From assembly GCF_003018115.1 (NCBI RefSeq), contig NZ_CP027457.1: a stretch of 64,000 nt of DNA, one strand, 5' to 3'. Positions 25,993 to 28,931 of the stretch are shown piece by piece. Below the pieces are notes generated by a model. The model was given only the letters and a program-made list of their open reading frames with translations, was not told the origin of the DNA and made no database searches. Numbering within the stretch: the stretch's first letter is position 1; the number at the start of each line of letters is the position of its first letter. The DNA is from Escherichia coli. Lineage in GTDB: Bacteria > Pseudomonadota > Gammaproteobacteria > Enterobacterales > Enterobacteriaceae. The position numbers were made by a program, and so were the translations under genes.

Positions 25993-27609
25993 ATGCTCAG
26001 TCAAATTCAACGCTTTGGCGGCGCGATGTTCACGCCAGTGCTGCTGTTTCCCTTCGCCGGGATTGTGGTGGGTCTTGCTATCTTGCTGCAAAACCCGATG
26101 TTTGTCGGGGAATCACTGACCGATCCGAACAGTTTATTCGCGCAAATCGTACACATTATTGAAGAGGGCGGTTGGACGGTATTCCGTAATATGCCGCTGA
26201 TTTTTGCTGTCGGTTTACCCATTGGCCTTGCTAAGCAAGCGCAGGGGCGTGCTTGTCTGGCGGTGATGGTGAGTTTCCTGACCTGGAACTATTTCATCAA
26301 TGCGATGGGAATGACCTGGGGAAGCTACTTCGGTGTCGATTTCACTCAGGACGCGGTGGCAGGTAGCGGTCTGACAATGATGGCCGGGATTAAAACCCTC
26401 GATACCAGCATTATCGGCGCAATTATCATTTCCGGCATTGTGACGGCGCTGCATAACCGTCTGTTCGATAAAAAACTGCCGGTGTTTCTCGGCATTTTCC
26501 AGGGGACGTCTTATGTGGTGATTATCGCCTTCCTGGTGATGATCCCCTGTGCCTGGCTGACATTGCTCGGCTGGCCAAAAGTACAAATGGGGATTGAATC
26601 TCTGCAAGCGTTCCTGCGTTCGGCGGGTGCGCTTGGGGTGTGGGTTTACACCTTCCTCGAACGTATTCTGATCCCAACCGGTTTACATCACTTCATCTAC
26701 GGACCGTTTATCTTTGGTCCGGCAGCTGTTGAAGGCGGCATTCAGATGTACTGGGCGCAGCATCTGCAAGAGTTCAGTCTGAGCGCCGAGCCGCTGAAAT
26801 CGTTGTTCCCGGAAGGCGGTTTTGCCCTGCACGGTAACTCAAAAATCTTTGGTGCCGTGGGCATTTCTTTAGCGATGTACTTCACTGCCGCACCGGAAAA
26901 TCGGGTAAAAGTGGCGGGCTTGCTGATTCCCGCAACCTTAACCGCCATGCTGGTGGGAATTACCGAACCGCTGGAATTTACCTTCCTGTTCATTTCACCG
27001 TTGCTGTTTGCGGTACACGCTGTGCTTGCGGCCTCAATGTCGACCGTGATGTATCTCTTTGGTGTGGTGGGCAACATGGGCGGAGGTCTGATTGACCAGG
27101 TTTTACCGCAAAACTGGATCCCGATGTTCAGCAACCACGCGGATATGATGCTGACCCAAATCGCCATTGGGTTGTGCTTTACCCTGCTGTACTTCGTGGT
27201 TTTCCGCACCCTGATTCTGCAATTCAACATGTGCACGCCGGGACGTGAAGATGCGGAAGTGAAACTCTACTCAAAAGCCGAATACAAAGCCTCGCGAGGC
27301 CAAACCACCGCGGCAGAGCCAAAAAAAGAGCTGGATCAGGCTGCCGGTATCCTGCAAGCCCTGGGCGGGGTCGGCAATATCTCCAGCATCAACAATTGCG
27401 CGACGCGTCTACGTATTGCACTGCATGACATGTCACAAACGCTGGATGACGAAGTCTTTAAAAAGCTGGGAGCGCACGGCGTCTTCCGTAGTGGCGATGC
27501 CATTCAGGTGATCATTGGTCTGCATGTATCCCAGCTGCGTGAACAGCTCGATAGCTTAATTAATTCTCATCAATCAACAGAAAATGTTGCCATTACGGAG
27601 GCAGTATAA
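25993..27609 (+). CDS. glvC: PTS alpha-glucoside-type EIICB permease (fused GlvC-GlvB-like), apparently intact
   Basis: From Met88 of ORF 25732..27609: [35 protein letters not shown]... EIIC membrane domain followed by an EIIB domain with the phospho-cysteine motif ([13 protein letters not shown]); 538 aa in a single frame. Confidence 0.85.
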
Positions 27610-28931
27610 TGACCAAATTCTCAGTGGTTGTCGCAGGCGGTGGAAGCACCTTTACGCCAGGCATCGTGTTGATGCTCCTGGCGAATCAGGACCGTTTCCC
27701 GCTTCGTGCACTGAAATTTTATGATAACGATGGTGCGCGGCAGGAAGTGATTGCCGAAGCCTGTAAAGTCATCCTTAAAGAAAAAGCGCCGGATATTGCG
27801 TTTAGTTACACCACCGATCCTGAAGTGGCATTCAGCGACGTTGATTTTGTCATGGCGCACATCCGCGTCGGCAAATACCCGATGCGCGAACTGGATGAAA
27901 AAATCCCGCTGCGCCACGGCGTTGTTGGTCAGGAAACTTGCGGACCCGGCGGAATAGCGTACGGCATGCGTTCCATTGGCGGCGTCCTGGAACTGGTGGA
28001 TTATATGGAAAAATATTCACCAAACGCCTGGATGCTCAACTACTCCAACCCGGCAGCCATTGTCGCAGAAGCCACGCGTCGTCTGCGTCCGAATGCGAAA
28101 ATCCTCAACATCTGTGACATGCCAATCGGTATTGAAAGCCGGATGGCGCAAATTGTTGGGCTGCAAGATCGCAAACAGATGCGCGTGCGCTACTACGGCC
28201 TGAACCACTTTGGCTGGTGGACATCAATTGAAGATTTGCAGGGCAACGACCTGATGCCCCAGCTGCGGCAATATGTCTCTAAGCACGGTTATGTTCCACC
28301 GCAGCAAGATACACATACTGAAGCGAGCTGGAACGACACCTATGCAAAAGCGCGGGATGTCCAGGCACTGGACCCGGATACATTGCCGAACACCTATCTG
28401 AAATATTATCACTTCCCGGATTATGTCGTTCAGCATTCCAACCCTGAACATACCCGCGCGAATGAGGTGATGGAACATCGCGAGAAACAGGTTTTCGATG
28501 CTTGCCGCGCCATTACGGCGGCAGGAAATTCAGCGGCGGGCAAGCTGGAGATTGACGAACATGCGTCATACATCGTCGATCTGGCGACGGCAATTGCCTT
28601 CAACACTCAGGAGCGGATGTTGCTGATTGTGCCTAACAACGGGGCAATCCATAACTTTGATGATGAAGCGATGGTCGAGATCCCGTGTCTGGTCGGGCAC
28701 AACGGACCAGAACCACTGGTGGTCGGCGATATCCCGCAGTTTCAGAAAGGGTTAATGAGTCAGCAAGTGGCGGTGGAAAAACTGGTCGTGGACGCCTGGG
28801 AACAGCGTTCATATCAGCACCTGTGGCAGGCGATTACGTTGTCGAAAACGGTACCGAGCGCCTCGGTCGCCAAAGCTATTCTGGATGAGTTGCTGGAGGC
28901 CAACAAAGCGTACTGGCCAGAGTTACGTTAA
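27609..28931 (+). CDS. glvG: 6-phospho-alpha-glucosidase (glycoside hydrolase family 4), apparently intact
   Basis: 440-aa [27 protein letters not shown]... with the GH4 N-terminal NAD-binding fold; start overlaps the PTS stop (TAATG). Confidence 0.85.

Follow-up and report, generated by a model that had tools for sequence, protein, structure and literature searches.

The glv locus of an Escherichia coli strain is probably the ancestral, ORF-intact form of the operon that is degraded in K-12

RESULTS

An ORF-intact glv operon

The 64,000-nucleotide stretch of Escherichia coli DNA analysed here (the window; contig NZ_CP027457.1) carries what is very probably the ancestral, ORF-intact form of the E. 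coli glv operon, an orthologue of Klebsiella pneumoniae aglA-aglB. This assignment draws on ORF integrity, domain content, catalytic residues, orthology, synteny, and the lesions of the K-12 copy with their frequencies. The permease gene glvCB (aglA orthologue; 25993-27609, plus strand) codes for a single-chain PTS EIICB of 538 aa plus stop from an ATG start, as read from both the ORF list and the raw sequence, and glvG (aglB orthologue; 27609-28931, plus strand) codes for 440 aa plus stop, predicted to be a full-length GH4 NAD+/Mn2+-dependent 6-phospho-alpha-glucosidase. The glvCB stop codon TAA (27607-27609) and the glvG ATG (27609-27611) share one base (GTATAATGACC). An earlier note on this DNA had described one continuous 538-codon frame carrying EIIC and EIIB, a CATRL phospho-cysteine motif, a TAATG overlap, a full 440-aa GH4 enzyme with an intact N-terminal NAD-binding motif, and a divergent GntR regulator, and all of these features stand: both Pfam domains lie in the ATG-started permease frame, the motif reads NNCATRLR at residues 467-474, the overlap is present in the raw sequence at 27607-27611, both GH4 domains fall within the glvG ORF, the NAD-binding motif occupies residues 6-18 (including GGGSTFTPG at 10-18), and yidP is on the minus strand with GntR and UTRA domains.

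The two genes are flanked by yidP (24981-25697, minus strand), which is divergent, and by yidL (28928-29821, minus strand), which is convergent, with the glvG and yidL stop codons overlapping by 4 bp. yidL codes for an AraC-family regulator (Pfam HTH_AraC, HTH_18, and AraC_binding; RefSeq annotation) and probably belongs with yidK-yidJ downstream rather than with glv; among the fetched loci, several other genera also have yidL-yidK after the GH4 gene, and B2 strains that lack glv still have yidL. RefSeq contains intact CDSs for both glv genes in F9792, the O157:H7-like ERL06-2497, BL21, and others, and labels the GntR regulator yidP in F9792, a strain near-identical to ours. Annotation gives the full EIICB the name 'PTS sugar transporter subunit IIB', an artefact of borrowing it from the K-12 fragment. 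An Rfam scan of 20000-32000 gave the ibpA ROSE element as its sole match and none in the glv leader.

The permease and the hydrolase

GlvCB matches Pfam PTS_EIIC at residues 10-346 (E 3.7e-71) and PTS_EIIB at residues 453-482 (E 2e-12), and the Pfam matches of both glv proteins are far beyond chance. The NCBIfam alpha-glucoside IIBC model TIGR02005 (cut-off 607.3) scores 959.2 bits, aligning residues 2-523 to profile positions 1-524; the glucose model TIGR02002 reaches 316 bits (cut-off 592), and the beta-glucoside models, whose cut-offs exceed 600, all fall short of 50 bits. The phosphoryl-accepting Cys469 of the EIIB domain (codon 27397-27399, plus strand) is a cysteine in 79/79 EIICB homologues, and HH232-233 and GITEP322-326 are invariant or nearly so in the same set (I323 in 77/79), with HH, GITEP, and Cys469 all within one 538-aa polypeptide. 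Structures of E. coli PtsG EIICB, 8qsr among them, align with GlvCB along its whole length; PtsG, a paralogue, shares the PTS Glc-family fold, domain order, GITEP/HH, EIIB cysteine, and, as predicted for GlvCB, dependence on EIIA-Glc, but differs in specificity subfamily. We therefore place GlvCB, on its sequence, in the alpha-glucoside-specific subfamily of the PTS Glc family (AglA/MalP type), with uptake as its predicted function. No EIIA domain or adjacent EIIA gene appears in the ORF list or in the Pfam matches of the window, and GlvCB would accordingly depend on an EIIA supplied in trans, predicted to be EIIA-Glc (Crr) by analogy with the behaviour of AglA and GlvC in E. coli.

GlvG contains Glyco_hydro_4 (PF02056; residues 6-184, E 2e-66) and Glyco_hydro_4C (PF11975; residues 195-415, E 1.7e-55), and the glycine motif of its Rossmann NAD+ fold aligns with its counterparts in 6dux and 1u8x. 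Its match to K. pneumoniae 6-phospho-alpha-glucosidase (6dux; E 2.7e-275, 916 bits) covers 393 identical residues of 439 (89.5%), and Bacillus subtilis GlvA (1u8x) follows at E 6.6e-224 and 747 bits, whereas the 6-phospho-beta-glucosidases 1s6y, 5c3m, and 1up6 score 145-212 bits; GlvG is thus closer to the characterised alpha-specific than to the beta-specific GH4 members. Crystal structures of AglB are available as PDB 6dux and 6dvv. In GH4 enzymes a Cys and a His are the Mn2+ ligands, and an Asp and a Tyr are the catalytic residues. C169, D170, H200, and Y263 of GlvG, which from the alignment offset we take to be GlvA Cys171, Asp172, His202, and Tyr265, are invariant in 80 homologues, and every catalytic residue that we checked is present; the conserved Cys/Asp/His/Tyr are shared with GlvA. 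By sequence GlvG is a predicted 6-phospho-alpha-glucosidase of the AglB/GlvA/MalH type.

One residue is out of the ordinary. Codon 268 (28410-28412, plus strand) is CAC, and the resulting L268H, which Klebsiella AglB does not have, lies five residues past the catalytic Tyr263 at a conserved hydrophobic position that is L, F, or Y in 80/80 homologues and Leu in five other E. coli alleles. The change is rare and lineage-specific, the exact H268 allele being found in 5 of 5,426 complete genomes (F9792, F8111-1SC3, two O169:H41 strains, and LR882990).

Lesions of the K-12 copy

The K-12 genes glvC, glvB, and glvG (b3683, b3682, b4556) occupy the same locus with the same flanks, and comparison with K-12 confirmed the statement of the earlier note that glvC/glvB are split and glvG is a pseudogene there; neither lesion is found in the window. 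The frameshifts that the note had anticipated proved to be lesions of other kinds. Alignment to MG1655 shows no indel anywhere in glvC/glvB, which rules out a frameshift between the window and K-12; the only lesion there is a nonsense substitution, a single C>T at 27097 that turns Gln369 (CAG in the window, 27097-27099, plus strand) into an amber TAG. Translated, K-12 glvCB meets stop codons at positions 369 and 539, and "GlvB" begins again in frame at Met378. In glvG the lesion is, rather than a small frameshift, a microhomology deletion of 508 bp (window 28202-28709, plus strand) between 8-bp direct repeats GAACCACT, whose copies lie at 28202-28209 and 28710-28717. The missing segment codes for the Mn2+ ligand His200 and for Tyr263, so that the deletion removes both and also shifts the frame. 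Beyond these two lesions only 27 substitutions separate K-12 from the window in the ~3.4 kb that align (about 99% nucleotide identity). With CAG at codon 369 and 28202-28709 retained, the window does not carry a degraded allele of the K-12 type.

The control region

YidP is a GntR/HutC-type regulator and presumed repressor, with a GntR helix-turn-helix domain (PF00392; residues 2-63, E 6.8e-21) and a UTRA effector domain (PF07702; residues 86-223, E 1.3e-30), and in 53 of the 80 loci fetched from species other than E. coli its gene lies next to that for EIICB (L005-L057 except two truncated loci, spanning Enterobacterales, Aeromonas, and Vibrio). BL21 yidP carries a frameshift. An alignment of 16 genera shows several invariant or near-invariant blocks between yidP and glvCB (25698-25992, given without a strand): GTCTA...GTAGAC half-sites, CCATGAA.GCGATCACGAATC, TATTCTC, and GAGGAT. 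The GTCTA/TAGAC half-sites sit in the region of a candidate palindromic YidP operator of the GT-N-TA-N-AC type, where a 10-bp inverted repeat (AGAGGTCTAC at 25814-25823 and GTAGATCTCT at 25838-25847) may serve as the operator; a CRP-like block (CATGAAAGCGATCACG, 25864-25879) a -10-like TATCCT (25920-25925), and a Shine-Dalgarno GAGGAT (25981-25986) are further candidates. The E. coli region differs from that of the other genera by an 11-bp insertion and by TATCCT where the others have TATTCT. The roles of these blocks are predicted from sequence conservation: a sigma-70 promoter scan of 25600-29300 gave no strong consensus, and the promoter and CRP proposals come from the phylogenetic footprint only. 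A literature search on YidP targets returned nothing direct.

Conservation in other genera

The gene order yidE-yidP-EIICB-GH4(-yidL-yidK) is found in Klebsiella, Raoultella, Kluyvera, Pseudocitrobacter, Enterobacter, Lelliottia, Kosakonia, Buttiauxella, and Dryocola, and this conservation across genera of the Enterobacteriaceae argues that the intact form is ancestral. The fused EIICB, which had been presented as a distinguishing feature of this locus, is indeed fused here, but the same holds, as the normal condition, for all other genera examined. K. pneumoniae aglA/aglB have the same two-gene architecture as glvCB-glvG, an EIICB of ~540 aa without EIIA followed by a 440-aa GH4 enzyme, and Klebsiella and Raoultella loci also share the divergent GntR-type regulator and the chromosomal neighbourhood; the EIICB orthologues of K. 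oxytoca and K. indica are about 80-81% identical to that of the window. No other Escherichia species occurs among the best 80 loci of a scan of genome contigs, which suggests that the locus is absent from E. albertii and E. fergusonii.

The Klebsiella system differs from E. coli glv in that its substrates and activity have been demonstrated, those of glv being predicted. PMC5309279 reports that Klebsiella aglA and aglB let E. coli K-12 grow on isomaltose and sucrose isomers in a crr-dependent manner, and regards the K-12 homologues as cryptic or truncated (Thompson 2001, Pikis 2006, and Reizer 1994 are cited there for the Klebsiella and K-12 statements). The B. subtilis maltose-6'-phosphate system GlvA (MalA)/GlvC (MalP)/GlvR likewise combines an EIICB without EIIA with a GH4 NAD+/Mn2+ phospho-alpha-glucosidase, and it is reported to allow use of isomaltose and panose, with a need for crr, when it is placed in E. 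coli (PMC5309279). Bacillus loci (e.g., L082) differ from the E. coli locus in gene order and regulator family, and their EIICB identity is about 60%.

Distribution and selection within E. coli

Among 5,426 complete E. coli genomes the locus is present in about 79%, and yidP-glvCB-glvG are absent from about 21%, for example ST131. An undeleted glvG is found in 1,652 (30%), the same 508-bp deletion as in K-12 in about 48%, and the exact K-12 amber allele in 348 (6%). The junction is identical in 9/9 deletion-bearing genomes. Full-length EIICB and yidP are both retained in 8/8 sampled glvG-deletion genomes, and we infer that about 2,300 such genomes keep them. Across E. coli, then, the glv locus is being lost. 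The locus is intact here, as the earlier note says, but with an undeleted glvG in about 30% of complete genomes it is ordinary.

Among intact E. coli alleles, pairwise comparison gives pN/pS values of about 0.02 (glvCB) and 0.08 (glvG), which indicate continuing purifying selection on these alleles. Segregating sites in the nine deletion-bearing genomes, counted to gauge selection on the permease once glvG is deleted, number 34 synonymous and 6 non-synonymous in glvCB, and 10 and 6 in the glvG remnant; even the remnant departs strongly from the neutral ratio, and most of these variants are therefore probably older than the deletion or have recombined around it. Other 'intact' alleles are altered at otherwise invariant positions (P217H in O157, D255A in BL21/Res13), and BL21 EIICB carries the substitutions G357S and L320P.

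DISCUSSION

In the mechanism that we propose for the intact operon, PEP would donate phosphoryl groups that travel via EI, HPr, and EIIA-Glc (Crr, whose gene lies elsewhere) to Cys469 in the EIIB domain of the 538-aa permease, and its EIIC domain would take up an alpha-glucoside and deliver the 6(')-phosphate. As candidates for the imported sugar we name isomaltose, maltitol, methyl-alpha-glucoside, and sucrose isomers such as palatinose and turanose. The GH4 enzyme would cleave the phosphate ester by NAD+/Mn2+ oxidation-elimination to glucose-6-phosphate and the aglycone, YidP, as a HutC-type GntR repressor with a UTRA domain, would bind the GTCTA/TAGAC half-sites of the shared intergenic region, and the conserved CRP-like site may impose catabolite control. 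Function of the operon in E. coli strains is a prediction, as are its substrate range, Crr dependence, regulatory sites, and expression and activity in this strain. The description of the locus as a complete alpha-glucoside uptake and hydrolysis module needs qualifying: the ORFs are intact and of alpha type, but the module is not self-contained, as EIIA is absent.

It is possible, if on balance unlikely, that the ORFs are intact and the operon is nevertheless phenotypically silent or decaying, either cryptic like bgl or impaired by L268H, so that intactness would have no physiological consequence. The E. coli bgl operon, a model of a 'cryptic' sugar operon that varies by phylogroup (PMC2646131), resembles glv in pairing a PTS permease with a phospho-glucosidase and in being intact, degraded, or absent across lineages, but it acts on beta-glucosides and is regulated by an antiterminator and silenced by H-NS; our analysis of glv gave no sign of such silencing. 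Consistent with silence or decay are the rarity of L268H and its place at a conserved hydrophobic site near Tyr263, the lack of a consensus promoter in the scan of 25600-29300, the loss or deletion of the locus in about 70% of genomes, and the radical changes at invariant positions in O157, BL21/Res13, and BL21 EIICB together with the BL21 yidP frameshift. Standard identification tables generally give E. coli as essentially negative for alpha-methyl-D-glucoside (acid) and palatinose, with which an expressed system in 30% of strains is hard to reconcile. A literature search on phenotypes of intact-locus E. coli (palatinose, turanose, maltitol, alpha-methyl-glucoside) returned nothing direct; the B2 type strain, which is without the locus, and E. 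albertii are negative on the relevant substrates (PMC4334874, PMC9145129). Against this reading, pN/pS is about 0.02-0.08 among intact alleles, the regulatory blocks, Shine-Dalgarno, and start codon are common to genera with an active system, and every checked catalytic residue is present.

The K-12 genes were historically annotated as an 'arbutin specific PTS permease' (PMC2617782), and GH4 includes 6-phospho-beta-glucosidases, of which 1s6y and 1up6 match GlvG at E 1e-41 to 1e-61. A beta-glucoside/arbutin PTS with a 6-phospho-beta-glucosidase is nonetheless very unlikely: TIGR02005 is passed by a wide margin where the beta models fail, and the beta-glucosidase matches are far weaker than those to AglB and GlvA. 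Arbutin is a beta-glucoside. It had been suggested as an assay substrate, a choice that the TIGR02005 score and the 89.5% identity to AglB speak against in pointing to alpha-glucosides. Finally, that the intactness is an assembly artefact, or that the module was re-acquired horizontally from Klebsiella or Enterobacter rather than retained vertically, is likewise very unlikely: nothing specific favours it, although polymorphism of the locus could in principle reflect gain, and it is countered by the same arrangement in 1,652 independent complete genomes (97.6-100% identity), a chromosomal context shared with K-12 and other genera, the few K-12 substitutions beyond the two lesions, native GC (0.52-0.53 at the locus versus 0.514 for the window), and a closest non-E. 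coli hydrolase, among the matches listed, that is 92% identical at the protein level.

Vertical retention of an ancestral alpha-glucoside operon is thus our preferred account. The intact operon is already known, is nothing new in kind, and is ordinary, since it is already annotated, is understood from its Klebsiella counterpart, and has an undeleted glvG in ~30% of genomes. The main value of these observations is a correction to a K-12-centred view: the split glvC/glvB and 212-aa GlvG of K-12 are lesions, and the undamaged operon is of the standard AglA/AglB type for alpha-glucosides. We suggest only tentatively, and with some doubt, that glv is a functional strain-variable trait by which ~30% of strains use sucrose isomers, isomaltose, or maltitol, or that the permease has a hydrolase-independent role; users would include O157:H7, ETEC O169:H41-like lineages, and B strains, and non-users K-12-like and B2 lineages, and the trait, if real, would be a niche or diagnostic marker. 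The full-length genes of BL21 and O157:H7 could confer use of isomaltose or palatinose. K-12 is unrepresentative at glv, for which E. coli strains show at least four states, and this bears on metabolic models, pangenome annotation, and strain engineering.

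An undamaged permease-hydrolase pair at the glv locus

The earlier note read the window's glv locus as EIIC and EIIB in one continuous frame, followed through a TAATG overlap by a full 440-residue GH4 enzyme with an intact N-terminal motif and accompanied by a divergent GntR regulator, and the raw sequence and Pfam bear this out. The permease gene glvCB (25993-27609, plus strand) is an ATG-initiated ORF of 538 codons plus stop, with PTS_EIIC at residues 10-346 (E 3.7e-71), PTS_EIIB at 453-482 (E 2e-12), and NNCATRLR containing Cys469. The hydrolase gene glvG (27609-28931, plus strand; 440 codons plus stop) codes for two GH4 domains (E 2e-66 and 1.7e-55) and GGGSTFTPG at residues 10-18; base 27609 is common to the glvCB TAA and the glvG ATG, giving GTATAATGACC. 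Both flanking regulator genes are on the minus strand: yidP (24981-25697; GntR and UTRA domains) lies upstream and is divergent, and the AraC-family gene yidL (28928-29821) lies downstream and is convergent. The stop codons of glvG and yidL overlap by 4 bp (TTAA, 28928-28931), so an intergenic terminator would have no space between these convergent units. At 22108-22180, 5′ of ibpA, Rfam identifies a ROSE_2 RNA thermometer (RF01832, 100 bits), as expected at that locus.

GlvG shares 393 of 439 residues (89.5%) with the crystallised Klebsiella pneumoniae 6-phospho-alpha-glucosidase 6dux and matches Bacillus subtilis GlvA (1u8x) with E 6.6e-224; GH4 6-phospho-beta-glucosidases are far weaker matches. 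Its Cys169, Asp170, His200, and Tyr263 are invariant in all 80 homologues compared and, by alignment offset, correspond to GlvA Cys171, Asp172, His202, and Tyr265. The permease passes TIGR02005 (alpha-glucoside-specific IIBC; 959 bits, cut-off 607) but none of the models for glucose, maltose, NAG, beta-glucoside, trehalose, or sucrose permeases, and its whole length aligns with EIICB structures of PtsG. In 79 homologues, HH232-233, GITEP322-326, and Cys469 show no variation or almost none (I323 in 77). The locus is the undamaged E. coli orthologue of Klebsiella aglA/aglB and is also related to glvC/glvA of B. subtilis.

Neither the ORF table nor Pfam revealed an EIIA domain or gene at the locus. 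PMC5309279 describes a need for crr by AglA and by B. subtilis GlvC when expressed in E. coli, and by analogy the phosphoryl donor to the permease is probably EIIA-Glc. Phosphate would pass from PEP through EI, HPr, and EIIA-Glc to EIIB Cys469, the permease would import an alpha-glucoside as its 6(')-phosphate, and GlvG would cleave the product, dependent on NAD+ and Mn2+, to glucose-6-phosphate and aglycone. Predicted substrates, from the Klebsiella and Bacillus systems, are sucrose isomers, isomaltose, maltitol, and methyl-alpha-glucoside.

The K-12 lesions

The K-12 locus is degraded, as the earlier note held, but not by the frameshifts it expected: alignment revealed an amber codon in glvC/glvB and a 508-bp deletion in glvG. 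We aligned MG1655 with window 25600-29300 (~3.4 kb aligned, the K-12 extract ending at window 29005) and found 27 substitutions and one internal indel, with no indels inside glvC/glvB. The glvC/glvB split results from a C>T change at window 27097, which converts codon 369 from CAG (Gln) to TAG; the K-12 permease frame is stopped at codon 369 and again at 539. The annotated 161-residue K-12 GlvB starts anew, in frame, at Met378 (window 27124), and K-12 'GlvC' thus lacks the last predicted transmembrane segment (~390-408) and the EIIB domain. In glvG, window 28202-28709 is missing, flanked by an 8-bp direct repeat (GAACCACT); the deletion eliminates Tyr263 as well as His200, the Mn2+ ligand, and alters the frame, so that what remains is the historical 212-aa ORF.

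Distribution of the intact and deleted forms

Among 5,426 complete E. coli genomes, the glvCB segment is present in 4,274 (79%) and the 508-bp glvG segment in 1,652 (30%); about 2,620 (48%) have the locus without the glvG segment, and about 1,150 (21%) match only at the yidL 3′ end or not at all (8 genomes), such that the majority of E. coli lack glvG or the whole locus. The exact K-12 amber allele occurs in 348 genomes (6%), mostly laboratory derivatives. The deletion junction is the same in all nine deletion-bearing genomes sampled, and both ORFs are full length and annotated as CDSs in each of six genomes sampled with undeleted glvG (the window, an O157:H7-like genome, BL21, and three others). 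In an ST131 genome (OX637964.1, locus 4244-6861) yidL directly follows yidE, the ~3.9-kb yidP-glvCB-glvG block being gone; Touchon et al. list glvC among the genes missing in every B2 strain (PMC2617782). The same ST131 genome has the yidJ sulfatase gene as two CDSs and lacks yidI. In CP062908.1 (locus 6229-8009) glv is intact, and an IS200/IS605 element (tnpA pseudogene and TnpB) beside a 75-bp yidL remnant takes the place of yidL-yidK-yidJ-yidI; this genome represents a subgroup with intact glv that amounts to ~5% by sampling.

Strain F9792 (CP024273) differs from the window by one mismatch in ~9.5 kb (window 23731-33200) of an 11.5-kb region around the locus, the comparison being ungapped and out of register upstream of an indel near 23730. 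This indel lies in yidE (23299-24984), an intact ORF in the window and annotated as frameshifted in F9792; either the strains truly differ here or one of the two assemblies is wrong.

All eight non-K-12 genomes examined with the glvG deletion keep the full-length 1617-bp EIICB ORF and an intact 717-bp yidP, and one EIICB protein, WP_000952127.1, is common to deleted and undeleted genomes. In PSS-08-1, yidL is frameshifted too. Across the nine deletion-bearing genomes, glvCB has 34 synonymous and 6 non-synonymous segregating sites, and the glvG remnant 10 and 6; since even the remnant's ratio is not close to neutral, these counts are compatible with a selected permease and with a young or recombining deletion alike.

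Control region

When the sequences between yidP and the permease gene were aligned across 16 genera, GTCTA...GTAGAC half-sites, TATTCTC (TATCCTC in E. coli), and a GAGGAT Shine-Dalgarno sequence proved conserved, the block CCATGAA.GCGATCACGAATC almost invariant, and the start ATGCTCAG invariant. Their counterparts in the window include candidate HutC-type operators, namely the inverted repeat AGAGGTCTAC / GTAGATCTCT (25814-25823 / 25838-25847) together with TAGATC repeats across the yidP start, and a block resembling a CRP site, CATGAAAGCGATCACG (25864-25879), centred ~60 bp upstream of the start expected after a -10-like TATCCT (25920-25925). A scan of 25600-29300 turned up no consensus sigma-70 promoter, which fits an activator-dependent promoter. 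These motifs suggest that YidP, for whose targets we found no published data, and CRP may control glvCB.

Selection and functional state

Pairwise pN/pS among intact alleles is ~0.02 for glvCB and ~0.08 for glvG, indicating that both have been under purifying selection. We lean modestly towards the operon being expressed and active in the window strain; the caution reflects changes at near-invariant positions, loss in most of the species, and negative phenotype scores. Window GlvG carries L268H, five residues past Tyr263, where five other E. coli alleles have Leu and all 80 homologues have L, F, or Y; this allele occurs in 5 of the 5,426 genomes, the four others including two ETEC O169:H41. 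Further 'intact' alleles are changed at near-invariant positions, for example P217H in O157 and D255A in BL21/Res13 (Asp in all 80 homologues). Standard identification tables generally give E. coli as negative for alpha-methyl-glucoside and palatinose. The phenotype data found are for the type strain of B2, which lacks the locus, and for E. albertii, which probably does as well; both are negative for these substrates (PMC4334874, PMC9145129).

BL21-Gold(DE3) (NC_012947.1, 19301-24401) has full-length EIICB and GlvG, and its yidP (locus 161-798) is annotated as a frameshifted pseudogene; its EIICB also carries L320P, adjoining GITEP, and G357S, at a Gly invariant in 79 homologues. The operon of B strains may be derepressed, or it may be decaying.

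Annotation and ancestry

RefSeq names the hydrolase '6-phospho-alpha-glucosidase' in 29 of 30 sampled genomes with the segment. The full 538-aa EIICB is systematically named 'PTS sugar transporter subunit IIB' (in loci L001 and L085-L096) because its residues 378-538 are hit by NF007255, an NCBIfam equivalog of 161 aa that corresponds to the restart fragment GlvB of K-12; this name is a small artefact of the K-12 nonsense allele, carried to thousands of genomes. The intact locus is real and was correctly read, yet it is ordinary and already known, being an aglA/aglB orthologue with an annotated hydrolase and a K-12 decay on record since the 1990s, according to work cited in PMC5309279.

Among the best 80 loci from a scan of species-representative genomes, the order yidE - yidP (divergent) - EIICB - GH4, often then yidL - yidK, recurs in Klebsiella, Raoultella, Kluyvera, Pseudocitrobacter, Enterobacter, Lelliottia, Kosakonia, Phytobacter, Buttiauxella, and Dryocola, and in these listed loci the permease is always one gene of ~538 aa adjoining or overlapping the hydrolase gene. 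A few kb downstream of their main match, Kluyvera genomosp. 3 and Kluyvera georgiana carry a further, tandem copy of a yidP-like regulator (60-61% identity) along with another GH4 gene (85-86% identity), which looks like a duplicated alpha-glucoside module. Gene GC (0.52-0.53) matches that of the window (0.514). The conserved gene order and matching GC indicate that the intact 'fused' arrangement is ancestral and vertically inherited, with the K-12 form and the absence from B2 strains being derived losses.
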